Shown here: one piece after another, positions 1 through 44,949 of the stretch
How the letters are laid out: every line of letters begins with the position of its first letter
How positions within the stretch are numbered: position 1 is the stretch's first letter
Virus record (IMG/VR): IMGVR_UViG_2595698404_000001
Location: 8,962 to 72,961 of that record
Reading direction: 5' to 3' (one strand)
Source of the DNA: a virus
Lineage: Duplodnaviria; Caudoviricetes
DNA: 64,000 nucleotides
Translations under genes and position numbers: made by a program
The notes under the pieces: generated by a model
Told to the model about the DNA's origin: nothing
What the model saw: only the letters and a program-made list of their open reading frames with translations
Databases searched by the model: none

Positions 1-2003
1 CTTAATGTTTTGTCTGGTTTACTTACTACTAATCTGATTAATTGACTATCAGTTTTTGGTGTCTCGGTAACGCTCTCTGCGTTGTCTAAGAAAATAGGTC
101 CTTGTACTTTGTAGAACTTACATAGTGCATTGATTATTTCGGTACCGCAATGTATTTTTCCTGCGGAATTAAGGATGTTAAAATCAACTCCTAGATATGT
201 GGCCTTACAAGTTGGTACTTCAGAACCGTTTACCTGAGTTTCAAATAATTTGAATTTAGTTACCTCAAACAATGCGTTTACTTTGTCTTCTATTTGAGAT
301 ACTTTAGCGATTGTAAAACTCTGAGCAACAAACTCTTGTTTCTCAATATCTGCTATAAGTTGCGCTAATTTCGATTCCTCTTTAGATAGTTCCTCTACTC
401 TTTTTTCAATTTCTGCAATTTGATTTTTCTTTGAAAGTAAATCGTTTACTACTTGTAAATCATTTTGAATAGCTGTTTTTTGAACTTTCAAATCAGAAAT
501 ATCTACAGTTTTAGCTTCTTCTAGTGTAGATTCAAGAGTAGTAATAGTCTCAATGTTTGCTTGGTACTCTTTGTGAGTAGAAAGAATTTTTGCTGCATCC
601 GCTTCTGGATTTACAGGATCAACACTTTCTTTTCCACTCTCTTTTTTTAATTCCTCCTTAAGAGATTCTAATTCTTTTTTGGTCTCTGAAATAAGTTTTT
701 CTCCATCTAAAATTCTCTTTGAAGTTTCGGAAACCCTAGATTCTAAAGTTTCTTTTCTTAACTTATTAGCTTGTCCGTTTGTGTTTATGCTTAATAATGT
801 ATGGTTTTTTTCTTCCTTAAAATCAAGAAGCATCTTTTCTTTTTTAGACTCAGCATCAATTGAGTCTAAAGGCCTTTTACAGCTAGGGCAGTTAATGTTT
901 TCTTCGTCGAATTTAAGAGACTTAGCGTTTTCTATATCAAAATCTTTTCTTAATTTAGAAAGAGTGTTTTCTATTTCAATTATAGAGTTTAGGTCTTTTT
1001 GTTTTTCGTAAATATAATCAGAAACTCCTTTTGCATATTTTTCTAAAGTATTCTCCTTTGCTGAAATTTTTGCATTTAATAAAGAGATAGGATCCTCTAG
1101 TTGCCCTGCTAATGAATTAACCTTTTTCTTAACCTCGAACTCAATGTTCTGATTCTTAGTCTTTAAAGCGAATACTTCGTTAGATACTTCGTTTCTTTTT
1201 GCGTTGGCAATCTCTACAGTTTTGTTTTTGTCATCTATTTTAGAGTCTATTTCTGCAATTTTTGTTTCTAACTCAACTTTTTTGCCTTCTGCTTCTTTAA
1301 AATCAATTCCCTCTGGCTTACTTTTAATTTGCTCGTCAATCCTAGTTGGAATAGATTCTATAGATTTTTTGTGAAGTAAACGTGTTGCAGCAAGTTCTTT
1401 TTTATATTCGTCCAGGTCTTTACCTACTAATTTGGATAGTAAGGCCTCAAATTCTTTGTTTCCTGCAGCAATTTCTAAATTAGATACATTACCTGCAATT
1501 GAAATTAAAAGTTCTCTCTGCTTCTCCCAGTGAAGTGCATTAAAAGCTAAAGGATCTGAAATCATCTTGAAAATTAGTTCATCAAGTATGTTGCTTATTT
1601 TTTCTTCATACTCCTTTTTTGACTTCGGAACGTTGTTGTAGAAATACTTTGTAATATTTCCCTCAAAAACAGTTTCTAATGCACCCTTCTTTTTGGTCCA
1701 TTTCTCGGATAAAATTCTGGTAAGTGTAATCTCTTCTCCATCTACATCTAAAATAGCCTTAACGCTGTGATCTAATTTTGGAATAGCTACATTATTTTCG
1801 TCTAATGTTTTGATTGTAGATTTAGAGTCCGATTCTCCAATCATATTTTTACCAAAAAATAACCAAGAGAATGCGTCTCCAATGGTGGACTTTCCAGTAC
1901 CATTGTCACCAAAAATACTTGTGATGTGGTTGAAGTCGATATTAACTTCTTTTGCTCCTTTAAAGTAACGAAGTTCTAATCGCTTTAATTCAATGTGTTT
2001 CAT
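1..2003 (-). CDS. SMC/Rad50(SbcC)-like ATPase with long coiled coil (3' end runs off the window)
   Basis: Missing from the ORF track. Manual translation MKHIELKRLELRYFKGAKEVNIDF...GDNGTGKST (Walker A); central CPSC zinc-hook-like motif; C-terminal PIFLDNAESV (Walker B). Confidence 0.88.
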   Translation of the reverse strand, partial: MKHIELKRLELRYFKGAKEVNIDFNHITSIFGDNGTGKSTIGDAFSWLFFGKNMIGESDSKSTIKTLDENNVAIPKLDHSVKAILDVDGEEITLTRILSEKWTKKKGALETVFEGNITKYFYNNVPKSKKEYEEKISNILDELIFKMISDPLAFNALHWEKQRELLISIAGNVSNLEIAAGNKEFEALLSKLVGKDLDEYKKELAATRLLHKKSIESIPTRIDEQIKSKPEGIDFKEAEGKKVELETKIAEIDSKIDDKNKTVEIANAKRNEVSNEVFALKTKNQNIEFEVKKKVNSLAGQLEDPISLLNAKISAKENTLEKYAKGVSDYIYEKQKDLNSIIEIENTLSKLRKDFDIENAKSLKFDEENINCPSCKRPLDSIDAESKKEKMLLDFKEEKNHTLLSINTNGQANKLRKETLESRVSETSKRILDGEKLISETKKELESLKEELKKESGKESVDPVNPEADAAKILSTHKEYQANIETITTLESTLEEAKTVDISDLKVQKTAIQNDLQVVNDLLSKKNQIAEIEKRVEELSKEESKLAQLIADIEKQEFVAQSFTIAKVSQIEDKVNALFEVTKFKLFETQVNGSEVPTCKATYLGVDFNILNSAGKIHCGTEIINALCKFYKVQGPIFLDNAESVTETPKTDSQLIRLVVSKPDKTL

Positions 2004-2026
2004 TTTTCCCGATGTTTAATTATTGT

Positions 2027-2224
2027 TTAATCTACTATTTTGAATTTCCTGGTTTCGTCAATTAGCTTCTGGACGCTTTCTAGTGTGAATAAGTTTGTTT
2101 TAAGGTCCAATTTATGAACTTCTAATTTAGATTTAAAGTTCTTGTAGAAAGTTGTCCGGCTGCAATTAAGCATTTCACAGGCTTTTTTTGTTGTTACTGC
2201 TATTGGTTTTTCATCTGATTTCAT
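2027..2224 (-). CDS. Xis/AlpA-like helix-turn-helix protein
   Basis: TTKKACEMLNCSRTTFY is a typical HTH_17/excisionase motif; 65 aa. Confidence 0.75.
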   Translation of the reverse strand: MKSDEKPIAVTTKKACEMLNCSRTTFYKNFKSKLEVHKLDLKTNLFTLESVQKLIDETRKFKIVD

Positions 2225-2235
2225 AGTTTTGTTAT

Positions 2236-2265
2236 TATTTGTAAAGAAGTGTAAAAATATGTAAA
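2236..2265 (-). promoter_or_regulatory. Tandem TTTAC operator repeats with 10-bp period
   Basis: 2236-2255 is an exact reverse complement of 3446-3465 (TTTACACTTCTTTACAAATA); lies directly upstream of the HTH gene. Confidence 0.6.
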
Positions 2266-2289
2266 ATTATTGGTATTATGAAACTTTAA

Positions 2290-2958
2290 TTAGTTCTTTA
2301 TTGTGTAAATTATGTTTTGTTCTTTTGCTTGTATTACTGGCATTAAAATTAATTCTGAGGGGCCAATCTTAAATAATACAGGGCTAGATGGTTCTAATAT
2401 TTCTGAAACTTCAATTAAGTCAATGTTTAAAGAATCGCATATAGCTTTCAGTTCTAATATTCTGGAGAAACTTAACCTAGTTGATTTGATGTCTATATAA
2501 GAATTTTCGTCAAAAATTTTGCGTCCTGATTTTGTTCTTTTAGATTTAGGAATATTCCCTTCTCCTTCGCAAACAGGGCAATCAAAATCTCTACAGTGTC
2601 CTTTAAATTCCCATTCAACTTCTCCGCTGCCTTCACATTCTTTGCATTCTCCATCTGTATTTGTCTCTATATATTCATCTACAGTAGGTATCATCTTTTC
2701 TATGTCTGATAAAACACTGTACTTTATATTAAAAGAACTAATGAATTTTTCTTTAAAAAAAGATGGACACTTACGGATAAGAGAATCGTCTTCCTGAACT
2801 TTATACCCATCGACCATATACTTGGGAACTCTAAGCATTGCACATGCATTTGTTGAATAAATATAAAGACCTATAGCGAATGGTTTATGAAATAAAGGTC
2901 TATATAGATCTGTTCCAGACACACTTTCAAGCGCTTTTTTGATGTTTTCTGTTTTCAT
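2290..2958 (-). CDS. Protein with DnaJ-type zinc finger inserted in a possible beta-clamp-like fold
   Basis: CKECEGSG and CPVCEGEG motifs; C-terminal LILMPV resembles sliding-clamp C-termini. Confidence 0.6.
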   Translation of the reverse strand: MKTENIKKALESVSGTDLYRPLFHKPFAIGLYIYSTNACAMLRVPKYMVDGYKVQEDDSLIRKCPSFFKEKFISSFNIKYSVLSDIEKMIPTVDEYIETNTDGECKECEGSGEVEWEFKGHCRDFDCPVCEGEGNIPKSKRTKSGRKIFDENSYIDIKSTRLSFSRILELKAICDSLNIDLIEVSEILEPSSPVLFKIGPSELILMPVIQAKEQNIIYTIKN

Positions 2959-2968
2959 AATATTATTT

Positions 2969-3217
2969 TTATGCTGTTAGTTTAAAAAAGTCATTAAATT
3001 CAACTACTCTTATCCCGTTCTTTTCCTGCATTTCGGCACTACCTACTGTTCCTGTAGATAGAAATGTGTCATTGTCTGCGAAAATAACAATAGATGTTTT
3101 TGTTTCGGCCATTTGAGGGACAAAACTAATGTATAAGTTTTCTGCTCCTAAAAACTCCTTTATTAAATTAAACTCTAATTCGTTTTTTACTACAACTGAT
3201 AATCCTTTGTTTTTCAT
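2969..3217 (-). CDS. Hypothetical protein
   Basis: 82 aa ORF preceded by TATATTTG (minus strand, 3251-3258). Confidence 0.6.
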   Translation of the reverse strand: MKNKGLSVVVKNELEFNLIKEFLGAENLYISFVPQMAETKTSIVIFADNDTFLSTGTVGSAEMQEKNGIRVVEFNDFFKLTA

Positions 3218-3300
3218 AATACGTTTTTTAGATTAAATTATTATTGAGTTCAAATATATGTAAATATTTGTAAACTTGTGTATTTTATTATGAAAAAATA

Positions 3301-3470
3301 ATTGTTGTTCAATGGTTGTTCAAATTTCATTGGACCAATGACTGCAAGTGCCGCCAGTACTGCATTGACTTCTTTGGCTCCGTGCCCGGAGTTAGAATAC
3401 GTTTTTTAAAAGAAATACTTGCACAGTATGTTTTTTGGATATATATTTACACTTCTTTACAAATATTTAC
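3301..3470. other. Probable attP-like region (arm repeats plus core)
   Basis: Tandem TTGTTCAA repeats 3305-3323; GC-rich core CGTGCCCGGAGTTAGAATACG at 3381; flanking TTTAC repeats; intergenic between divergent genes near Xis and Int. Confidence 0.45.
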
Positions 3471-3490
3471 AGAAATTAAATAAATGAATT

Positions 3491-3682
3491 ATGAAAGTAG
3501 AAATTACAAAAAGACAATTAGAAGCTATACAAGAGGTTTGCATAACGATTGATGCTACAATAGGTTGTAGTGACACTGAATCATCGGATGACGCTCCGGA
3601 TTTTGATAAAAGCATGAATAGAGAATTGAAAATTATAAAAAGATTCTTTAATAAAAATGGTTATGAATTAGATATAAGTTAG
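3491..3682 (+). CDS. Hypothetical protein
   Basis: ORF with AT-rich leader; stop codon overlaps the array-start palindrome. Confidence 0.6.
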   Translation: MKVEITKRQLEAIQEVCITIDATIGCSDTESSDDAPDFDKSMNRELKIIKRFFNKNGYELDIS

Positions 3683-3749
3683 TATTAATACTAACGTATT
3701 GCTATATGAAAAGTACGATTGAATTATAAATTAACTTAATAAATAAACG

Positions 3750-4016
3750 ATGAATTTACAAGAATTAGAAAACAAGGTTTGGAAAGAAAATGTTAAACAA
3801 AAAACGATTGATTTAGTGCAAAATGCTGAATGTGATTTTGATGATGAACCCTATACCGAAGATGAAATAGGTGCATATATTTATGAGGTAGGAATTTGCC
3901 TTGAAGTTTATGATCCTTGTTTGCGTGTAGATGTGGAAATACTTACGGAATTAAAAACCATTTTAGAAAGTAAGCTAGAACGACTTAGAAGCTTTCCTAA
4001 AAAAGAAATGGCTTAG
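3750..4016 (+). CDS. Cassette-borne hypothetical protein
   Basis: Lies wholly inside the loop of unit B1. Confidence 0.7.
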   Translation: MNLQELENKVWKENVKQKTIDLVQNAECDFDDEPYTEDEIGAYIYEVGICLEVYDPCLRVDVEILTELKTILESKLERLRSFPKKEMA

Positions 4017-4166
4017 TATTTTTTATATAGCGTGTTGTAAACTGGCGCACCTATTTACAAAGATTGCGTAATGATTGTGCGCTTGTTTACAACTGACGCG
4101 TATAAGAATTGAAGCGGATGGTGACGACACGAATGTCGCTACCATAACAAACTAAAATAAATAATA

Positions 4167-4484
4167 ATGAACACCGATAAAGCAATAAACCGCTTTTGTT
4201 TTTATACGGTGTTATATACTGTTAAAATGGCAAAGACAAAACAAGATTATATAAACGAATTAGTAAGCATTGCATTTGATTTCGATAAAAAATACCAACT
4301 GCAAGATCAAAGAATGCAAGACCTTCAAGAAATGGCTTCACTTGCAAGACTAGGTAAAAAAGAAAGTCAAGAATTTAGACAATTAGAAATGAAACACAGA
4401 GCAACTGTAATTGACTTTGGTAATGAAGCAAATGCAATGCGTAGGGTAATCAAGAACCTTAAAAAATATGCGTGGAACTTTTAA
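4167..4484 (+). CDS. Cassette-borne hypothetical protein (alternative start at 4227)
   Basis: Spans the B2/A3 junction; stop codon in the right arm of A3. Confidence 0.7.
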   Translation: MNTDKAINRFCFYTVLYTVKMAKTKQDYINELVSIAFDFDKKYQLQDQRMQDLQEMASLARLGKKESQEFRQLEMKHRATVIDFGNEANAMRRVIKNLKKYAWNF

Positions 4485-4562
4485 TTGTTTATAACGAATA
4501 GTAATATGAAAAGTTGCTGAATTAAGCACGAAAATTAATAGATAAACCTAAAAATAAAAATT

Positions 4563-4703
4563 ATGTTAGATAGCGGAGACAATGAATTTGTTTACAAAGG
4601 ATGCAAAGAAGCAATAGAAAAAGGAATTGCAAAGTTTACATTAAAAGACTTACAAAAAGGATTTAGTAAAGAAGAAGTAAGTAAGTGGGAAAACGAAAAG
4701 TGA
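4563..4703 (+). CDS. Small cassette-borne protein (46 aa, MLDSGDNEFVYKG...)
   Basis: Manual translation; AAAATTATG start; inside the loop of B3. Confidence 0.5.
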   Translation: MLDSGDNEFVYKGCKEAIEKGIAKFTLKDLQKGFSKEEVSKWENEK

Positions 4704-4879
4704 TTTTTATTTTCTTCGATTGAGCAACGAACTTAATTAAAGAGAAACGACCTAAAGCAATTTTTTATATTACGTGTTAGCAAATGGGCGCAAGTTAACA
4801 CGTTTGAGTGAGTATAGAGTTTGCGCCTTTTTGCTAACGTAATTGTATAAGGCAAGTAAATATAAATAAACTGTAAATT

Positions 4880-5179
4880 ATGGAATTAAAAAATAAGATT
4901 GAAAAAGTGCTAAAAGACTACGGATGTTTGCAAAAACACAAAAACGAAGGAGTTGGGGAAGCTTATAACCAAATAAGAAACGAAGATTTAGTAAATGATT
5001 TATTTGCTTTATACGGTGTTATGTGTAGTTTGAACTTAGCTGAAATTGAGAACTTAGTTAGATTAAAACACTATGACGATAGCGACTTTGGTTGGGATAA
5101 AAAAGCGTGTGAGGAAATGCGAGAAGAAAGTAGAAAATCAGTAGGTTATACTAAAGCTGATTTAGAAAATTACACATAA
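4880..5179 (+). CDS. Cassette-borne hypothetical protein
   Basis: Spans the B4/A5 junction (LYGVMCS); stop TAA is part of the terminal TAAC. Confidence 0.7.
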   Translation: MELKNKIEKVLKDYGCLQKHKNEGVGEAYNQIRNEDLVNDLFALYGVMCSLNLAEIENLVRLKHYDDSDFGWDKKACEEMREESRKSVGYTKADLENYT

Positions 5180-5218
5180 CGGTTTGAATAAACGCAGTAA
5201 TTTAACAGAAAGATAGAT

Positions 5219-5527
5219 ATGAGAACGAAACTTAGATTATTATGGTATTGGTTTGAAACAAGGTACGCAAAATTATTGCGTTTATTTGGTGTTGTGCGTA
5301 GTACGGATTGTATTCCTGACGGAATGTATTGTTATGAGTATGATGAAGAACGCAACGCTAAAGAGCCTACTGATGGATATTGGATAAAAACTTGCAAGTA
5401 TTACAGAAGCACACCAAAAACAAAAGGCGTTGCTTGTACCTATGTAGGATATATTGGATTTGACCCTTGCTTATATGACCAATGTAAAATATGTGGTGTA
5501 AAAGATTCTTTTGAAAACGAGGATTAG
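5219..5527 (+). CDS. Cassette-borne Cys-rich protein
   Basis: Spans the B5/A6 junction (LFGVVRS); IPDGMYCY...CKYY...LYDQCKICG motif. Confidence 0.7.
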   Translation: MRTKLRLLWYWFETRYAKLLRLFGVVRSTDCIPDGMYCYEYDEERNAKEPTDGYWIKTCKYYRSTPKTKGVACTYVGYIGFDPCLYDQCKICGVKDSFENED

Positions 5528-5573
5528 TATTACGCACAACAATGTTATATAACTAATTCAAAAAACTGAATCT

Positions 5574-5810
5574 ATGGAAACTACTGCAAAACAAGTGACT
5601 TTAAATATAATAGATGGTAAATTTACATCTTTAGAATTGCAAAATTTACTTCAATTAATTGCACAAGAGTTGAAATTACAAACTACATCCAATTACGCTA
5701 AAGAAAACAAACTATCTTTTAATGGAGTTAAAAACTTTAGGCCTCATATTTTAATTGATGGAATCAAATTTCATTCAGACGGAATTATAGAAAATAGCTT
5801 ACCTTTTTAA
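5574..5810 (+). CDS. Hypothetical protein, possibly DNA-binding
   Basis: 78 aa ORF immediately upstream of the integrase. Confidence 0.6.
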   Translation: METTAKQVTLNIIDGKFTSLELQNLLQLIAQELKLQTTSNYAKENKLSFNGVKNFRPHILIDGIKFHSDGIIENSLPF

Positions 5811-5831
5811 TTTTTTAAATCAATCGGGAAA

Positions 5832-7118
5832 ATGGCAACAATAAGACTAGTAACAAGAAGCAAGAAAAACCCTTGCAATTTAAACATTCGATTTTCTGCA
5901 GGAAGGGAGAACAACTTCTACTTGCCTACAAAAGTCTTTGTTAATCCAAACCATTGGGATAATAAAAAATCGAACTACAAAAACTCTAGCGAAATAGAAG
6001 ATAGAATGATTAAAGCGGCTAAATTTGAACGCTTAAAATCTGATATTTTAAACGAGTATAACACTGCTTATATGAATGGCGAAGTTACCGATCCTCAATG
6101 GCTAGAAGAAGTTGTTAAGGACCTGTTTGATCGTCCAGAAAAAGAGAAAGGAAACAAAGTTCGTGAGCATTTTGTGTACTACTTAGATTTTTGTGAGTAT
6201 TGGTTGAAGGAAATTGCACCGACCTGGAAGACAGAAAAGAATAAATTCATGTCAAAAAGAGCAATTCAACAGTACGACACCTTCGTATTGGCCTTTAAAA
6301 ATTTTCAAAACAGTTCTACAAGAAAGAGATACCGTATAAAAGATGTAAATAGTGTTGTTTTAAACGATTTCTCGACTTATCTATGTGACGAAGCTAAGTT
6401 TGCCCCTACGACATCGAAACGTTTAGTAGGTCGCGTTAAATTCTTTTTAAACAGAGCAGAGAAGACCGGAATAAAAACAGATCCTAGTTTTAAAGAGCGT
6501 GTTTATGTGCAAAAAGAAGAGACAGATATTTTAGTTCCGTACTTAAACGAGGAAGAAATAGAAAGAATTTTTCGTCTGGATCTATCGAACGACCAAACAC
6601 TAGACAATATTAGAGATAGTTTTTTAATTAGTTTGTGGAGTGGCCTGAGAATTTCAGATTTCAATAAGAACTTAGATATTAGTAATATCGATGGGGAGTA
6701 TATCAAGATAATGACAACTAAAACTGGCAGTTGGGTTACAATTCCCTTGCATCCGCATGTAAAAGCGGTGTTAAACAAGAGATTTGGCGCTTTGCCAGTG
6801 AAGTATAGTGACAAACATTTTAACGAGCACGTAAAAACCGTGTGTATGCTTGCAGATATAGACGAAGAAATTAAAGGAAAGTTATTTGACAAGGATAAAA
6901 AGAGAAAATTGGTCGATGTTTACCCTAAATACAAGTTAATTAGTAGTCATTCTGGACGTAGAAGTTTTGCTACCAATTTGCACGGCAGTATTCCAGATCA
7001 TATTTTAGCAGATTTAGGCGGTTGGTCAGATATTAAAATGATGCTTCATTATGTGAAGCGTACAAAAAAAGAAAGTGCGGAAGTTTTAAAGAAAATTTGG
7101 GATGAAAAATATAAGTAA
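5832..7118 (+). CDS. int: Tyrosine recombinase / phage integrase (Bacteroidota type with N-terminal arm-binding domain)
   Basis: SGLRISD (R), KT, HSGRRSFATN (HxxR), GWSDIKMMLHY (catalytic Y); N-terminal PNHWD arm-binding motif. Confidence 0.95.
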   Translation: MATIRLVTRSKKNPCNLNIRFSAGRENNFYLPTKVFVNPNHWDNKKSNYKNSSEIEDRMIKAAKFERLKSDILNEYNTAYMNGEVTDPQWLEEVVKDLFDRPEKEKGNKVREHFVYYLDFCEYWLKEIAPTWKTEKNKFMSKRAIQQYDTFVLAFKNFQNSSTRKRYRIKDVNSVVLNDFSTYLCDEAKFAPTTSKRLVGRVKFFLNRAEKTGIKTDPSFKERVYVQKEETDILVPYLNEEEIERIFRLDLSNDQTLDNIRDSFLISLWSGLRISDFNKNLDISNIDGEYIKIMTTKTGSWVTIPLHPHVKAVLNKRFGALPVKYSDKHFNEHVKTVCMLADIDEEIKGKLFDKDKKRKLVDVYPKYKLISSHSGRRSFATNLHGSIPDHILADLGGWSDIKMMLHYVKRTKKESAEVLKKIWDEKYK

Positions 7119-7727
7119 CCATTACGTAGACAACAGGGATATTAGAGATAATAACTATCTAGGTCCTCTTGTTAATTTTTATGACGAGACTAATCCTAGA
7201 CATAGAAACGTTGTAGGGAAAATTAGCAAAAAAGAAGCTCTTGAAACTATCAAGAAAATATTAATATATGATTCCGAAGATTTAAAAGGGAAAATAAAAA
7301 GACAAAAAAATATTTAGAAGAAAAAAGTAAAGCAAACCCTGAGCTTACATTTAGTGAGTTTTACGAAAAAGATTTTTATATTTTGATAAACAAATTTATA
7401 GATAGTGGGTATAATTTCAAAAGACCAGGGTATAGTATTCCTTTGACTAAGGAAGATGTGAGGCATATTTATTTAATGCAATCAGATCAACTAAATGTTA
7501 GAAGGTCTGGGTTTGATAAATATAATGATGTATCTATTAGTGAGAATGAATTTAAGTTACTTTATGAAGAAAGTAAGAGTGAATTAAGTTGGTTCTGGGA
7601 TAAGGATCCAATAAAATACAACAAACGAAAAATAACTTCCTTCCCTTATTATGATTTGGCTCAGTTAGAGGAAGCATTAAGTAATTGCGAAAATAGAATT
7701 AAAGAAATAAACCAACATAAAAAATAA
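7102..7727 (+). CDS. Hypothetical protein, probably one gene split by a -1 shift at A7 (7304-7310)
   Basis: The frame of 7383..7727 is open back to 7305 (KKYLEEKSKANPEL...). Confidence 0.5.
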
Positions 7728-7732
7728 GTAGT

Positions 7733-8086
7733 ATGGAAAATAATATAATTTACTCAGAAAATTACGCTGTTCACTTTAAAATGAATGAAGGTTGGATCAG
7801 TTTTATTGCGTATTATGTAGTCAAAGGAAGTCAAGATCAAGTTGAGACTTTATGGTACTTAGATAAGGACGACGAGCAAAAAACACTAAAAGATTTTGAT
7901 GAAAATAAAGCATTCCATAAATTAAAAGGAAGTTATGTTTGGCGTGGAGTTTGGGAAGGAAGATTATACTTCACTGACGAAGAATATTGGAGTGAAGATT
8001 TAAAAGAATTGAGCGACTTATTTAGTGACACCATCGAGCCTTTTTGTAAAGAAAAAATTACAGAATATAACGATAAAAATAATTAG
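7733..8086 (+). CDS. Hypothetical protein
   Basis: 117 aa ORF in operon. Confidence 0.65.
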   Translation: MENNIIYSENYAVHFKMNEGWISFIAYYVVKGSQDQVETLWYLDKDDEQKTLKDFDENKAFHKLKGSYVWRGVWEGRLYFTDEEYWSEDLKELSDLFSDTIEPFCKEKITEYNDKNN

Positions 8087-8087
8087 T

Positions 8088-8570
8088 ATGAGAGATACAA
8101 GATTAGAAATTTCTATAGAATCTTTAATAGAGTACAAGTACCCTAACATTAAAGATTTGAATGTAGAATGTATTCAGGGTGGTAAGACTGTAATTAAATA
8201 CAGTAACAAAGATATTCCAAAACAAGATGTAATAGATTTTTTAGGGAGTGTTAAAAAAGAAATTGCTACTGAAGAATTTATGAAGGATTTAATTAGTGGC
8301 AGTGCCTTCGTATTCCATAACGGAAAACTTCTAGTTGAAAAAGGAAGTACCGAAGAATCGGTTTTGAAAAATAGTAACATAAATTTATCTTATCCAGATC
8401 CTTTAACAGATAAAGAGAAAGAATTATATTTTGATACCAAAATAGAGCACCTTACTTCAGAAGAAATTACTCAGAAGTATGGTGACAAACTTTCCGAAGA
8501 GCAAATTGGATTTTTAAAAAAATACTCAAAAATAAATACTAATGGATGCAATCCTGGCGAAGATCTTTAG
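8088..8570 (+). CDS. Hypothetical protein (start at MRDTRL)
   Basis: ATG directly after the previous stop codon. Confidence 0.6.
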   Translation: MRDTRLEISIESLIEYKYPNIKDLNVECIQGGKTVIKYSNKDIPKQDVIDFLGSVKKEIATEEFMKDLISGSAFVFHNGKLLVEKGSTEESVLKNSNINLSYPDPLTDKEKELYFDTKIEHLTSEEITQKYGDKLSEEQIGFLKKYSKINTNGCNPGEDL

Positions 8571-8628
8571 TACAATAATTAAACGATTTTAAAATTGTGG
8601 CATCGTAACTTTAAAAACAGGACACAAA

Positions 8629-8662
8629 AAAAACCCTTACTAGTAATATAGTAAGGGTTTTT
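8629..8662. terminator. Bidirectional intrinsic terminator
   Basis: AAAAACCCTTACTA/TAGTAAGGGTTTTT between convergent genes. Confidence 0.85.
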
Positions 8663-8673
8663 AATTTATGGTT

Positions 8674-8904
8674 CTATTTAAAAAATTTCTCTAACTTATC
8701 GGAGTTATTAAAACAAAATACTATAAACTCGGCATGTTTTAAGGCTTCGTATTTTTCTCTTGTGCTCTGGATCTCGCTTTGTTCATTAATATAATACGGA
8801 ATCCTAGCCACTTTATATTTTTGTCCAGGTGTTGTGCCTATTATATTCCATGCCGAATTTTTTTGACTATGTTGTATCTTTACTTTTATTTTTGGATTTT
8901 CCAT
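8674..8904 (-). CDS. Hypothetical protein
   Basis: 76 aa ORF in the leftward cluster. Confidence 0.6.
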   Translation of the reverse strand: MENPKIKVKIQHSQKNSAWNIIGTTPGQKYKVARIPYYINEQSEIQSTREKYEALKHAEFIVFCFNNSDKLEKFFK

Positions 8905-8907
8905 AAC

Positions 8908-9150
8908 CTATATTTTTGCGTTAAAATTAATTTCTGCGTTTATTGCTTTTAATATTCTTGATGCCGTAACGATAGAGGGCCTTTTTAGCCCTCTGATTAT
9001 CTTTGAAATATCGCCCTGACTTATACCCGTTTCTCGAGAAATAAAGCCCTGTGTAATTCCTAAATTCTGCATTCTTTCGCTTACGTAGTCCGCAAACTGC
9101 ATAATGATTTCCTGTTCTGTTTCCGTGTGATCGATATAAGTCTGAGCCAT
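8908..9150 (-). CDS. XRE-family HTH regulator
   Basis: GITQGFISRETGISQGDISKIIRGLKRPSI is an HTH_3 pattern. Confidence 0.85.
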   Translation of the reverse strand: MAQTYIDHTETEQEIIMQFADYVSERMQNLGITQGFISRETGISQGDISKIIRGLKRPSIVTASRILKAINAEINFNAKI

Positions 9151-9153
9151 AAG

Positions 9154-9318
9154 TTAAAAAGTTTTAATTCGTTCTACAAGTGCGCCCCTTTCATTTATTG
9201 AAAGCTCTTCAAAAGTTCTATTGTTCATGTGCCATCGTCCGTTTAAAACTTGATAGTTAGTATTCGGTCTTGGTATTTCTTCCTTTATTTCTCTGATTGT
9301 TTCTAATATTCCAAACAT
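9154..9318 (-). CDS. Hypothetical protein (start at MFGILE)
   Basis: AAAATACTATG start context. Confidence 0.5.
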   Translation of the reverse strand: MFGILETIREIKEEIPRPNTNYQVLNGRWHMNNRTFEELSINERGALVERIKTF

Positions 9319-9643
9319 AGTATTTTGTTTAATTTGTTTCTTTTTTAAACTGCTTCTTTTGATCTCTTTTTGGCGGCAAAGTTCCGCTAATAGTTCCACC
9401 AGTTATTAGGCACTTATTTTGTTCCCACCAGGCAGGAACTAATTTTTTTGTGTCGTTTCCATGTTATAACAATAATAAGATTGATATTGATAAAATTATA
9501 ATAATCGTCCAATAATAGACGTCTTTAAATGTCGGCTTTTTCATAATAGTAAACCGTAAATATTAATTAATATTCCTATTGCCCAAAGAATTAGCACGGT
9601 TAAAATTACCGTGCTATCTTTAATTTTTATGTCCTTCATACCT

Positions 9644-9937
9644 TTATTTTTTTGGTTCTTCAACATTAATATACTGCTTATACTCTTTTCCTGTTTTCTT
9701 ACTGGTCCGTAAAATGTACAAACTACCGCGCGAACTTTTAAAAACTGGGTAACTAGTTCCTTTAATATCGATAGTAAACTTAGTTTTTACCGCTTCGGTT
9801 GCTGTTTTGGCCGTTTCTACCTTAACGAGCTTGTCACCATCGACTATATATGTAGGTTTTTTCGATTGAGCGAAGCTACAAGACGATATAAGTAGTAAAA
9901 TTCCCGTAATTGTGCATAAAATGTTTCTTTTTTTCAT
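9644..9937 (-). CDS. Small secreted or membrane protein
   Basis: MKKRNILCTITGILLLISSCSFAQ signal peptide. Confidence 0.6.
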   Translation of the reverse strand: MKKRNILCTITGILLLISSCSFAQSKKPTYIVDGDKLVKVETAKTATEAVKTKFTIDIKGTSYPVFKSSRGSLYILRTSKKTGKEYKQYINVEEPKK

Positions 9938-10132
9938 GTTGTTTAATTTATTTGATTTTAAAAAAATGATTATACCTTCCTTTTGAGGTTTCAAACCTCG
10001 TTTTAATAAATCCGTTTACCTCTCCAGAATATGAAACCATATTTTTATATTCTCCAAGGTTAAACGCTTTGCAGATTTGCAAAACTTCTTCTTTTACTTC
10101 CTTCATATTGTTTATGATTAATATTAATTAGT

Positions 10133-10178
10133 TCCTTAGTTGGTAGCGAACCAATAAAATGCGCTTTGCATCTAAGGA
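10133..10178 (-). ncRNA. tRNA-like (7-bp stem plus T-arm) leader element, copy 1
   Basis: TCCTTAG..ATGC/GCAT..TTGG-TTCGCTA-CCAA-CTAAGGA on the minus strand. Confidence 0.5.
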
Positions 10179-10187
10179 TTGGGTTAG

Positions 10188-10481
10188 TTATTTGTTTTCA
10201 CTTTTCCAGTTTTCAAAATCATTTACATATAATTGACAAAATTCTTTTTGCTCTGTTGGATTTATGTTAAAGGATTTTAAAGTATTTATGTAATGTTTTC
10301 TTGCTACTCTTTCAAGTTGCGAAAATCTTTTCCATTTTGGACCAGTTCCAAACCATCCAGTTTTCAAAATATCTCTGTAAATAGAATCCCTTAAGGCTGC
10401 TAATTCTCTTGTGTTATCGGTATAAAGAATTAAATCGTTTACAGCGTGACTTGTTGCGCCTGTTTCGTATGTAGTTTCCAT
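10188..10481 (-). CDS. Hypothetical early protein
   Basis: 97 aa ORF. Confidence 0.6.
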   Translation of the reverse strand: METTYETGATSHAVNDLILYTDNTRELAALRDSIYRDILKTGWFGTGPKWKRFSQLERVARKHYINTLKSFNINPTEQKEFCQLYVNDFENWKSENK

Positions 10482-10715
10482 ATCTAATAAATTTTAATTG
10501 TTAACACCGCCCAATTAAGGGCGAACGCTTGCAGCCTAATAACCTATTTTATGCCGCTGCAACGGCTTCAATTTTCCATCCTTCGTACTTCATGGCCCAG
10601 TGTGCGCTTTGACCCTGTTTCCTTTGTAGCTGCATATAACACTCGTTTTCTGTTCCTGTGAATTTAATTTCTCCGTTTTGACTTAAATTATATTGTTTCA
10701 TGGCTTAAATGTTTT

Positions 10716-11243
10716 TTAGATATTATATAAATTGTTTAAATTTTCGTTGTTTAAAATACGCTTAACACAGTACTTTAAAATTTTTATTTCATTATTGGAT
10801 AGATCAGATTCTTTTATAGTTCTGTACCCTATACCATTAGTTAAGTATATTTTTTCTCCTACTAGAATAAACTCAATATTCTCTCTTCTTGATATTCTGT
10901 AATAATTACCATTAACCGACGAACAACTTAAAAATCTTTTGTTTTTTAAATGGTCCTTAAAATCTACCTTTTTAATTGTGTCTTTGCCATCTGGATGCTT
11001 TTTAAAAAACGCAGTATCTTCTGGTCTTTTATCGTCAATTATCTTATCAATCATTGTATCATATATTCTAAAACCTGACGTAGTATTATATTGATTGGAG
11101 AATAAAAATTTTGTATCTATATCAACCCATTTCCCTTGATTTTCTTTTACCCAATTAACAAAATTATCGTGTGCTTTTTTGTCGTTTCTAAATCCTGAAA
11201 AAGGTTGAATGTAAATGTAATTACTCGTTAATAATGCTTTCAT
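10716..11243 (-). CDS. Hypothetical early protein
   Basis: 175 aa ORF. Confidence 0.65.
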   Translation of the reverse strand: MKALLTSNYIYIQPFSGFRNDKKAHDNFVNWVKENQGKWVDIDTKFLFSNQYNTTSGFRIYDTMIDKIIDDKRPEDTAFFKKHPDGKDTIKKVDFKDHLKNKRFLSCSSVNGNYYRISRRENIEFILVGEKIYLTNGIGYRTIKESDLSNNEIKILKYCVKRILNNENLNNLYNI

Positions 11244-11289
11244 AATCGTATCTTTTAAAATGTTTATTAATTTGTTTTTTCTGGTGAGC

Positions 11290-11472
11290 TTATTTGGTTA
11301 GTTCCATGTCTTTTATGTAGCTATCCTTTAAAGAAACTGCTTCTTTCTTTGGGTACTTGTCGGACCATACTAAAAAGCGTTTAAATCCTTCTAGTGAGTA
11401 ACCAAGATATTCAAAATATAGTTTTGAATTTTTTATTGTTCTGGTGTAAGTGGTATTTATTTCTAATTCCAT
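11290..11472 (-). CDS. Hypothetical early protein
   Basis: 60 aa ORF. Confidence 0.55.
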   Translation of the reverse strand: MELEINTTYTRTIKNSKLYFEYLGYSLEGFKRFLVWSDKYPKKEAVSLKDSYIKDMELTK

Positions 11473-11625
11473 AACCTTATTTTTATTTGTTACCTAATAA
11501 ATACCTTATAACGGTATTAATTTTGTTCTTCTCGTTTAATTCTTTCAGCTCCTTAGCCGTATAAACGTTTACTCTTGCTCCTGCATGTATAATTGTCAGG
11601 CCTGTTTTGCTTTGCATGATGTTAT

Positions 11626-11847
11626 TTATTTTTTAATTGATTGGTTTATGTAGTTACACCTAGCAACTGCAATTGTTATATCTGAATAAGCACTATCGAC
11701 AATACAATAACACCCGTTAGGCTTCCATACATGGTAATTAGGTTTTTTATTAGTACCCTCATTACTTACATAGCAACTTCCGGAAGTATGTAAAATATTT
11801 AAGCTTATTTCCTCTTTAGTTCCGTTAGGGTTATATTTATCATTCAT
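11626..11847 (-). CDS. Hypothetical early protein
   Basis: 73 aa ORF. Confidence 0.55.
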   Translation of the reverse strand: MNDKYNPNGTKEEISLNILHTSGSCYVSNEGTNKKPNYHVWKPNGCYCIVDSAYSDITIAVARCNYINQSIKK

Positions 11848-12039
11848 AACTCTCTTATTTTAAATAATCCGTGTTTAAATCTCCGTTAATCAATCCTATT
11901 ACTAAACTCCCAATAGTTACCGCAATAACTCCAAGAAATAAAACCTTAATTAATAACTCTACTTTGTTCGTGTTCTCTAATACTCTGTTTAATGTCTTCA
12001 TAATATTTATGTTTTAAATGTTAATACTCTTTAATTAGC

Positions 12040-44016: not shown

Positions 44017-44205
44017 ATACCATCCAATCATCTTCCTCTACTTTGTCGCTATAGTCTGGAGACTTTACGAGTTTAGACTTACCGCATAATATTACCGCTA
44101 ATATCAATCCTATCCAAAATAATGTTGTTGTCATAATCTTTAATTATTTAGTTCGTTACTATTCAATGTTTCGGTTAGTTTACAGGCACTAACCATAGAA
44201 TTTTC

Positions 44206-44558
44206 GTTAGGATGCATTAAGAGCAACTAATACAATGTCTCCAATTGTATGTATTCCTTGTGCAGAATTATCCATTGGTATAACTTTTAAATTATGTGGT
44301 AATAGTTCGGCTATTGGTTCTGTAAACCATACAGCAACTTTTCCATTACCTATTCCTTTTCTTCTTGCTATTGGCGTAACTTCTCCAGTAGAAGGTATTT
44401 TAATTCCAAATGTTGTACTCATAAAAAACGGTGCCTAACACAATATAAAAACAAAAGCTATTATTAGGCTAAATTTTAAGGCTTCTGCTTGTTTATTAAT
44501 ATTATTTTTAACTCAATCTTTGTGCTTATTTACGGCTTCAATTTTTATACTCACCGTT
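44206..44558 (-). repeat. Solitary integron-like cassette (B+A unit)
   Basis: Minus strand AAC-GGTGA-GTATAAAAATTGAAGC...GCTTTTGTTTTTATATTGT-GTT-AGG...CCTAAC; arms nearly identical to unit B2 of the array. Confidence 0.8.
44207..44422 (-). CDS. Cassette-borne hypothetical protein
   Basis: Inside the A unit; stop codon within the terminal TAAC. Confidence 0.65.
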   Translation of the reverse strand: MSTTFGIKIPSTGEVTPIARRKGIGNGKVAVWFTEPIAELLPHNLKVIPMDNSAQGIHTIGDIVLVALNAS

Positions 44559-44949
44559 AAAAACAAATAACAGCAACTCCAACACCTATTTTAGTATACC
44601 TTAATACCCTCATTGGATTTCTTTCGTTAATCAAATCAAATCGGTATCTATCCATATATCCTACAGCGGTGTAAAGTTCTGTTCCTTGTTCGTCTATTAA
44701 TACTAGTTTTGTTATTGTACTTTTTCCCTCTTCCACTAATATACCCTCCATTTTCCAACCTCCAGCTATTACATTTAATTTAGATTGATGCAATACACCG
44801 TTAATAACTAATATCGCTTCTGTAGGCTCTCCGCACTTATCTAAGAACGTAGGAACTGTAAAAGACATGTTTAGTTCTTCGTATTGTGTTTCATGCTTAC
44901 CGCAGGATAGTAGGGTTAAAATGGCTAGTATGGTTATTAGTTTTTTCAT
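44557..44949 (-). CDS. Lipoprotein
   Basis: MKKLITILAILTLLSC lipobox. Confidence 0.75.
   Translation of the reverse strand: MKKLITILAILTLLSCGKHETQYEELNMSFTVPTFLDKCGEPTEAILVINGVLHQSKLNVIAGGWKMEGILVEEGKSTITKLVLIDEQGTELYTAVGYMDRYRFDLINERNPMRVLRYTKIGVGVAVICF

Follow-up and report, generated by a model that had tools for sequence, protein, structure and literature searches.

The 64,000-nucleotide (nt) stretch of DNA analysed here (the window; positions 8,962 to 72,961 of the IMG/VR virus record IMGVR_UViG_2595698404_000001) belongs to a Cellulophaga Baltivirus (Pachyviridae) with a 73-kb virus record, whose relatives are phi19:3, phi13:2, and phi18:3. The subject is an array of small open reading frames (ORFs) framed by long-range hairpins, which occupies the whole space from a conserved divergent promoter/operator region to two conserved genes, a 78-amino acid (aa) ORF and a 428-aa tyrosine recombinase. 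Two kinds of unit follow one another in it, A (GTT..AAC) and B (AAC-N5..GT-GTT); if the array is cut after each AAC, it resolves into a first ORF (ORF1) with a palindrome, then five B+A units of 342-402 nt, in each of which one hairpin is compact while the other holds the gene, or, in the fourth and fifth, the gene spans both. The region is best explained as five mobile gene cassettes that follow the first ORF in the early operon of the phage. The parts of the locus are as follows.

3439..3474, plus strand: likely early promoter/operator segment (stem score 41.0; promoter role presumed)
3491..3682, plus strand: first variable ORF, 63 aa; homology to relatives ends at about its ATG
3678..3695, plus strand: A1, a perfect 18-nt GTT..AAC palindrome and minimal A unit, with the ORF1 stop codon inside
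3693..4093, plus strand: cassette 1, composed of B1 (3693-4036; loop ORF 3750-4016, 88 aa) and the empty A2 hairpin (4034-4093)
4091..4495, plus strand: cassette 2, composed of the empty B2 hairpin (4091-4213, a conserved non-coding element) and A3 (4211-4495; ORF probably 4227-4484, with an in-frame ATG further upstream at 4167 that is not kept in homologues)
4493..4838, plus strand: cassette 3, composed of B3 (4493-4778; ORF 4563-4703, 46 aa) and the empty A4 (4776-4838)
4836..5180, plus strand: cassette 4, composed of B4 (4836-5020) and A5 (5018-5180); a single ORF (4880-5179, 99 aa) crosses the B-to-A junction, with an in-frame ATG at 5021
5178..5540, plus strand: cassette 5, composed of B5 (5178-5293) and A6 (5291-5540); ORF 5219-5527, 102 aa, C-terminal half Cys-rich
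5538..5553, plus strand: constant right end of the array, consisting of AAC, 3 nt, and the 10-nt palindrome GTTATATAAC; candidate entry (attI-like) site
5574..5810, plus strand: 78-aa ORF that separates the array from the recombinase gene, kept in the 3 relatives (phrog_18952, function not known)
5832..7118, plus strand: tyrosine recombinase, 428 aa, co-oriented with the array

Perfect palindromes thus flank the array on both sides (3678-3695 and 5544-5553). None of the six cassette and first ORFs tested matched Pfam, none of the seven array ORFs tested matched PHROGs, and no Rfam 15 covariance model gave a match at E<=1 within 3678-5553. The two window ORFs that read through a B-to-A junction (4880-5179 and 5219-5527), like ORF 5582-5887 of phi19:3, start in a B loop and continue past the 3′ arm and the junction across the A unit; two of these cases have an in-frame ATG directly at GTT-ATG.

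A preliminary description of this region, made from the letters alone, had placed ten hairpin units end to end between the palindromes, and all ten were recovered at their positions by a repeat search together with stem scans. The arms of B1, B2, B3, B4, B5, A2, A3, A4, and A6 were within the 25 longest of 85 inverted pairs in the repeat search, the A5 arms (5017-5031/5167-5181) were recovered by stem scans, and a gapless stem scan returned all ten units from 3700 to 5541. The interval 3678-5541 is an end-to-end chain of 10 long-range stems, alternately A and B units, with spacings of -1 to +5 nt between neighbouring stems; A3 is the weakest stem (17 nt, 82% complementary). The best chain in 3600-5650 comprises 10 stems with a total score of 247, 9 of them scoring at least 22, whereas in 243 dinucleotide-preserving shuffles of the same interval the chain score averaged 25.1 (maximum 62), a chain length of 3 stems was never exceeded, and the number of stems scoring at least 22 averaged 0.31 (maximum 2). 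When both strands of the whole window were scanned with the same scoring, 9 of the 29 plus-strand stems scoring at least 23 were A or B units, compared to 0 of 16 on the minus strand, one of which has a single arm inside the B1 loop. The shuffles and the two-strand scan therefore confirm that the tiling of 3678-5541 is real, non-random, and coding-strand-specific; the preferential folding claimed for the sense strand holds in that scan, and, as also proposed, the ORFs lie on the better-folding strand even within hairpin loops. Short junction patterns are weakly enriched in the window (7 matches vs. 2.4 expected; 10 vs. 5.7), and as evidence on their own they were dropped for that reason.

Pair statistics were drawn from 62 distinct stems (30 A and 32 B) of many phages. 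Under symmetric scoring these contain 190 G.T pairs vs. 25 A.C pairs, in agreement with the earlier impression that most mismatches are G.T; the stems had first been chosen with a G.T-friendly score, and the unbiased strand test is the whole-window scan described above. In A stems, GTT is followed by six covarying pairs and then by A-T or T.T (position 10), G.T (position 11), and T-A. The G.T at position 11 is present in 25 of the 30, most others being mis-registered by 3 nt at GTTGTT, and within the window this pair, noted earlier for every A unit, is found in A2, A4, A5, and A6, and in A3 by reading of the sequence. In B stems, TAT(A/T)G precedes four covarying pairs, which are followed by G and then (T/A)A(G)C, where both G's pair with T, which gives two G.T wobbles 5 bp apart. 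In both kinds of stem the wobble lies at a distance of 11 positions and the core is AGTA/TATT, and conservation outside AAC/GTT is limited to GTT-R / Y-AAC. The B spacers are asymmetric (mostly 3-6 nt vs. 1-3 nt), B units span 84-1131 nt, and A stems measure 14-34 bp; the loops of the units range from 26 to more than 1000 nt. Arms that are unit-specific yet covarying had been reported for the window, and this extends from pairs within units to homologues: 13 long-form B2 homologues show compensatory changes at 6 of 16 predicted pairs, and 8 short-form B2 copies, invariant among themselves, show further compensated differences from the long form. The combination of unit-specific covarying arms with fixed wobbles on one strand suggests a site that is read as a shape on a folded single strand. 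Folded as RNA, A2 reaches -24.8 kcal/mol (z -4.9), B2 reaches -33.0 kcal/mol (z -4.9) on the sense strand vs. -25.5 on the other, and B5 reaches -22.4 kcal/mol on the plus strand vs. -12.5 on the minus strand.

At the array position, the three Baltivirus relatives have the same tiled stems around different genes. These relatives have 8, 15, and 9 different small ORFs there, including two DNA methylases (N6/N4 and C5), and no homologue of the window's array content was found in these three phages. Homology to the relatives ends at the first ATG and restarts exactly at the AAC at 5538 (at 5525 in phi13:2), and in all four Baltiviruses AAC marks the end of the variable region. phi18:3 also has minus-strand units, in which fold polarity follows gene orientation. 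A search of IMG/VR for relatives of the recombinase returned only phi13:2, and relatives were therefore found by DNA similarity and the junction pattern. Sequencing runs contained at most 17% of the sampled words, with contigs that cover the conserved flanks only and contain no joints, and the DNA and RNA contigs with loose ends at 5538 appear phi18:3-like and are hence not independent. The array end is present in RNA libraries, from which contigs cannot show transcript ends; one 969-nt contig, of a phi18:3-like phage, runs from the last cassette across the AAC junction into the 78-aa ORF (window 5538-6000).

Near-identical phages differ by whole units. In the Polaribacter phage Freya, the array was defined in seven isolates as the interval from the end of a conserved 1050-nt ORF to the start of the integrase gene; whole genomes were compared for Freya_5 and Freya_6 alone, the other identities being over arrays. 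The seven isolates have seven distinct arrays, 99.8-100% identical over the arrays, with lengths of 965, 1807, 2709, 3181, 5005, 5600, and 5907 nt that all add up exactly. Freya_5 and Freya_6 are 99.989% identical over 45,279 nt and differ by one 472-nt insert. This insert corresponds exactly to a B unit, with a 71-aa ORF, and an A unit; it immediately precedes the integrase gene, and a 7-nt repeat with AAC as its last letters marks its boundaries. The Freya_6 array is the Freya_5 array with one cassette added. The arrays of Freya_1, 2, 5, and 9 are the first 879, 1721, 2623, and 5514 nt of the Freya_10 array (100% identity), each prefix being joined directly to the same 86-nt constant end, and the Freya_8 array is that of Freya_10 minus 1722-2623. 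All 5 breakpoints in the Freya_10 array, which holds 153 AAC trinucleotides, fall at an AAC that closes an A hairpin, and the joined partners in this nested series have 3-4 nt in common. Variation is concentrated at the array end that adjoins the tyrosine recombinase gene, the promoter-proximal part being common to the arrays.

Comparable events are seen in other phages. Danklef_1 and Danklef_5, identical over 13.8 kb, have a 781-nt unit that Danklef_2 and Danklef_4 lack, composed of an empty B and an A (31-bp stem) that encloses an adenine methylase gene; the unit is bounded by AAC, with 4 nt common at the joint, and an HNH gene also belongs to the Danklef cargo. Freya_10 and Danklef_1 have a common 1169-nt block, 99.6% identical, with AAC at both ends and a common left flank that stops exactly at GTGTT. 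A B+A block that is 99.2% identical between phi19:3 and phi13:2 occupies different array positions with different neighbours and has AACG..AACGG ends. The Freya, Danklef, and Baltivirus events all fit the proposed cassette, a B+A pair bounded at AAC, and the relatives do not have the fixed gene content, free of indels at AAC/GTT, that would speak against it. This series of breakpoints at hairpin-closing AACs identifies the B+A units as mobile DNA cassettes. Judged by the genomes compared, the arrays show cassettes that have been gained, lost, swapped, and reordered as DNA, with the crossover at the AAC closing an A hairpin, where breakpoint comparison cannot separate AA|C from AAC|. Repeated gain and loss at a 3-nt site, among isolates of one sampling campaign, argues against homologous recombination and points to site-specific recombination, and the precision of the breakpoints makes random breaks sieved by selection unlikely.

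The same stem grammar occurs in phi13:2, phi18:3, phi19:3, Ingeline, and the Polaribacter phages Freya and Danklef, and A2 itself is also found in Freya, which has a full array. The leader (4490-4559) and trailer (4704-4838) of cassette 3 are kept in Ingeline and partly in Nekkels. This frame is 79-92% identical among the window, Ingeline 6001-6427, and Nekkels 568-833 (coordinates of the respective stretches), and the ORFs enclosed by it are unrelated (46 aa in the window, 71 aa in Ingeline, 46 aa in Nekkels). As these alignments read, genes are replaced inside a conserved hairpin frame, and the same applies to the A units behind the short B2 form in IMG/VR loci. Distribution was scanned with a degenerate pattern of 22 nt that describes how the empty B2 unit ends in its 3′ arm. 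Of the IMG/VR matches, 25 of 35 had the whole 84-nt or ~122-nt hairpin, preceded by Y-AAC and a spacer and followed by GTGTT-R, many inside longer chains. Among the 120 matches listed from bacterial and archaeal genomes, 4 were genuine; the other 116 lacked the 5′ arm and were discarded as chance matches. By this pattern, the element appears to be essentially phage-specific.

Elsewhere in the window, the promoter/operator segment at 3439..3474 is kept in relatives as far as the first ATG, and a 36-nt inverted copy of it is found at 2227-2262, ahead of the leftward genes; an inner inverted pair (3259-3274/3456-3471) also frames the divergent control region. These inverted repeats probably represent a duplication of promoter/operator sites, which would serve the early operons in both directions, leftward and rightward. 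Within the early genes that run leftward there is a full-length Pistol ribozyme match (RF02679; 10500-10567, minus strand), with 46.5 bits vs. a gathering score of 34.5 (E 4.7e-06), the only above-gathering match in 1-12000. Far from the array, a further unit stands by itself.

44174..44558, minus strand: solitary cassette, consisting of AAC, an empty B2-like hairpin, an A unit, and a mini hairpin (44193-44174)

The AAC of the solitary cassette overlaps the stop codon of ORF 44557-44949, its A unit holds a 71-aa ORF (44422-44207), and the orientation of its motifs is that of its gene. In relatives this position has different content, with a homology break at TAA|C. ORF 44557-44949 (minus strand, 130 aa), directly beside the solitary cassette, has a lipoprotein-like signal sequence and 90-94% DNA identity to genes of phi4:1, phi17:2, phiST, phi13:1, phi19:1, and phi19:2; it appears to be another horizontally moving gene, common to unrelated Cellulophaga phages.

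How the cassettes move is a separate matter. An integron-like DNA mechanism, in which B+A cassettes are recombined at AAC and the sites are recognized by shape, is the account that we favour, with some reserve. Recognition would depend not on sequence but on the coding strand folded on itself as a single strand, the helix having GTT/AAC at its base and, one helical turn further along, a fixed G.T wobble. Strand exchange at AAC would be carried out by a tyrosine recombinase that the phage encodes or that is provided in trans, much as IntI acts on attC, and the array would serve as a reserve of accessory genes that can be shuffled and are transcribed from a single promoter upstream. The methylase cargo in relatives fits an accessory or counter-defence role, which we infer for the cassette cargo. 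Of the integron-like interpretation put forward in the preliminary description, the structure-defined units, the coding-strand fold, and the B+A ends at AAC stand, with a dumbbell circle of single-stranded DNA as a hypothetical intermediate, but a literal integron reading does not, as the recombinases are not IntI and the stems have no extrahelical bases.

In three phage families, the array lies immediately upstream of a tyrosine recombinase gene and is co-oriented with it. The window recombinase (Pfam PF00589 and PF13102, phrog_1 integrase, SAM_5 N-terminal domain) is of the Bacteroidota arm-binding type and not an IntI, and it gave no match to the integron-integrase models NCBIfam TIGR02249 / NF011946, which stand for tyrosine recombinases that have the additional domain specific to IntI. 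The recombinases of Freya and Ingeline (271 and 263 aa) are Xer-like and 40% identical to each other; against the integron-integrase models they reach 96.5 and 91.9 bits, in two stretches, where the cut-off is 265, and their best match is an Xer-type model, also below its cut-off. In a tblastn search with the three recombinases, no homologue was found in the flanks of the 25 IMG/VR loci, which are short. The Danklef_1 integrase homologue (7584-8096 of its stretch) lacks residues 1-95. A 79-nt segment leads the Danklef_1 array directly into this gene and matches, at 96% identity, the beginning of a B unit located 1.8 kb further upstream (5783-5861); the truncation may have been a rearrangement of the cassette type. 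The use of Danklef as a broken-integrase control was given up, since Danklef_2 and Danklef_4 lack one cassette and the comparison lends no support to integrase dependence. HNH endonuclease genes adjoin the integrase in Freya (1805-2428) and Danklef, and an HNH gene is the first array gene in Danklef (2024-2410) and lies near the array in phi19:3 (2809-3384); HNH endonucleases are possible alternative nucleases for cassette movement.

Several observations weigh against the integron-like mechanism. With regard to the enzyme, the recombinases that adjoin arrays belong to two unrelated classes; among 5 IMG/VR records with arrays, a PF00589 gene is present in 1, where it is located 31 kb from the array, and 2 of the 3 complete IMG/VR phage records with arrays (rated 100%) have no tyrosine recombinase. 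Danklef arrays vary although the integrase lacks its N-terminal residues. From these arrays without a recombinase and from the Danklef variation it follows that the catalyst may act in trans or may not be the neighbouring gene. With regard to the ends, a B unit common to phi13:2 and Freya (91% identity) ends in AACGnnn on the left and TGTT on the right, several Baltivirus blocks stop not at AAC but within conserved leaders of start codons, and the 5-nt spacer after AAC varies more than the adjoining B unit. With regard to the fold, B hairpins are the minimum-energy structure with RNA parameters only and on the sense strand only (B2, for example, is not the minimum-energy fold under DNA parameters), so the selected fold may be in the transcript; this and the close bracketing of ORFs make a transcript-level role conceivable, by itself or alongside the DNA mechanism. 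Loops of up to ~1.1 kb would be hard to close as single-stranded DNA, and the sense-strand preference predicted for all units, which holds for B2 and B5, fails for the short A hairpins, which are about equally stable on either strand.

The folding results lead to the first of the alternatives, in which the helices act at the mRNA level and bracket cistrons as RNase III-type processing sites, stabilizers, or folding insulators. DNA breakpoints would then fall at unit borders since recombinants that keep whole RNA modules survive, and the junction motifs would be microhomology. Besides the RNA-only minimum-energy folds, this reading accounts for a fold polarity that in every case matches that of the gene, also in the solitary cassette on the minus strand and in the phi18:3 units, and for G.U pairs that are frequent and at fixed positions; start codons follow the 5′ arm by 10-45 nt and the 3′ arm contains or adjoins the stop codon, as expected of helices around cistrons. 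The hairpin frames kept around replaced ORFs, the arrays of complete phages that have no tyrosine recombinase, and the RNA contig that spans the last junction in a relative are also in its favour. A2 and A4, with a lower stem, a central mismatch or wobble, and an upper stem, presumably resemble the RNase III sites of T7. However, at least 7 independent events between genomes or arrays that are 99.6-100% identical, all exactly at AAC and with 3-7 nt in common, are too exact and too recent to be attributed to random breaks and the survival of intact modules, and empty, gene-free hairpins are retained in every cassette. Processing would moreover cut the read-through ORFs 4880-5179 and 5219-5527, and the recombinase-proximal location of array changes would be left unexplained. 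We therefore consider an origin of the pattern at the mRNA level unlikely, though it is the alternative that survives best.

A second alternative keeps recombination at the DNA level but places recognition in duplex DNA, where a core of AAC, 4-7 nt, and TATAA would be cut by a neighbouring recombinase or by a nuclease such as HNH. The core would be present at every junction in alternating orientation and at the constant end, and the long-range complementarity would serve another purpose. The constant ends do resemble an A-to-B junction (AAC, 5 nt, TATAAC in Freya; AAC, 5 nt, TATATAAC in the Baltivirus), the B-to-A junction in reverse complement is the same motif, and the identity at the Freya_5/6 joint is 7 nt. 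Seven nt is a typical overlap for tyrosine recombinases, and the variable 5-nt spacer after AAC may be akin to the heterology-tolerant overlap of Bacteroides IntDOT-type integrases. Against this, the core has ~8 specified bases, and motifs as short as this occur by chance in pattern scans; no inversions between oppositely oriented junctions were found in any array compared; and the covarying unit-specific arms, the fixed wobble positions, and the strand bias all go unexplained. Recognition of a duplex core thus seems improbable.

Homologous recombination between repeated regulatory motifs, as in the promoter early stem-loop (PeSL) cassettes of T4-type phages, would suit a hyperplastic region with small ORFs of unknown function, some blocks that end in conserved leaders of 15-20 nt, and RecT-type genes in Baltivirus and Freya, but the array has no repeated motif of useful length, its arms are unit-specific, and the identity at joints is 3-7 nt only, all of which makes this reading very improbable. 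MITE-like transposons were dropped for want of target duplications, and mimicry of host CRISPR repeats, which would concern a likeness of the ends only, was dropped because the arms are too variable; hairpin-telomere sites were likewise set aside.

Returning to the integron-like reading, integrons are, to our knowledge, the one well-understood system for capturing individual genes by way of structure-defined sites, and they are considered bacterial. Whether tailed phages of marine Flavobacteriia possess a second, independently evolved system of the integron type, with genes between two shape-defined hairpins, insertion and excision at AAC by non-IntI tyrosine recombinases or a host enzyme, arrays that lengthen and shorten next to the recombinase gene within one bloom season, and cassettes that cross phage families and host genera, is in our estimate evenly balanced. 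Such a phage-borne analogue, if true, would explain the gene-by-gene turnover of hypervariable early and accessory phage regions and would offer new recombination sites and enzymes to study. The exchange of single ORFan and counter-defence genes by phages would become directly testable, anti-restriction methylases would be among the cassettes passed between phage families and host genera, and the ten Freya isolates would provide a tractable natural series for watching cassette gain and loss. If the mRNA-level reading were true, the locus would be an unusual operon, in which every cistron is closed by its own long-range helix. Full-text literature searches returned no description of such an array. 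The paper that describes Freya, Danklef, Ingeline, and Nekkels gives genome-size ranges and one integrase per genome, and its main text does not contain the terms ‘hairpin’, ‘inverted repeat’, ‘cassette’, or ‘variable region’, while its supplements may hold Freya genome comparisons (PMC8776804).

Some known systems resemble the array in part. RNase III helices between the early genes of T7 and around rRNAs are sense-strand structures that punctuate a polycistronic transcript, with stems that bracket a functional unit and, roughly one helical turn away from where the helix ends, a mismatch or wobble in the middle; unlike the helices described here, they are not known to be linked to precise DNA gain or loss of the bracketed unit. 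At the attP of the CTX phage, a hairpin of single-stranded phage DNA is the substrate of a host-supplied (Xer) tyrosine recombinase, to which the folded single-stranded site proposed here, with a possibly host-supplied recombinase, would be analogous. There, however, a whole filamentous-phage genome integrates at dif, whereas here single genes move in double-stranded tailed phages. PeSLs flank small variable ORFs in hyperplastic regions of T4-type phages (PMC2839356, PMC4122927). Modular insertion, deletion, and replacement between close relatives are common to both systems, but PeSLs are repeated promoter-plus-stem-loop motifs that recombine by homology, while the arms here are unit-specific, the hairpins are long-range and enclose a gene, and the joints share 3-7 nt.

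The closest likeness is to integrons. An attC site is a hairpin with imperfect pairing, 57-141 bp long, that has an R box (RYYYAAC/GTTRRRY) and an L box, an unpaired spacer of 5-6 nt in the middle of each arm, extrahelical bases, and a terminal structure that varies; it is recognized structurally, AAC is its sole conserved stretch, and the crossover occurs inside AAC (PMC5027507). The phage arrays likewise have sites of hairpin shape with AAC/GTT as the sole invariant letters and strand-specific folding, and just as the integron crossover lies within AAC, all breakpoints between near-identical arrays here are at the AAC that ends an A hairpin. Both systems are one-directional arrays of mostly promoterless small genes in which variation adjoins a tyrosine recombinase gene, the AAC-spacer-stem..stem-spacer-GTT unit corresponds to attC, and the GTT..AAC inverted ends that each cassette has around it correspond to core and inverse-core sites. 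Integron arrays that lack a recombinase exist as clusters of attC sites lacking integrases (CALINs), and the phage arrays also occur without one. The differences tell against a literal integron. The carriers are virulent or temperate phages of Flavobacteriia and not chromosomes or plasmids, each cassette has two hairpins with genes inside the loops, B units alone are also exchangeable at GTT, and it is the coding strand that folds better. The A stems, of 14-34 bp as given above, compare with a 7-bp R box in attC and show no R-box consensus, and fixed G.T wobbles stand where attC has extrahelical bases. In integrons, attI and the promoter Pc lie beside a divergent intI and entry is promoter-proximal, whereas in the phages the recombinase gene follows the array in the same orientation, which puts the apparent entry point at the promoter-distal end; moreover, none of the adjoining recombinases is an IntI. 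The preliminary description had set the array apart from canonical integrons, and with neither an IntI nor the attC architecture present this distinction is upheld: the array works like an integron but is not a member of the integron family.

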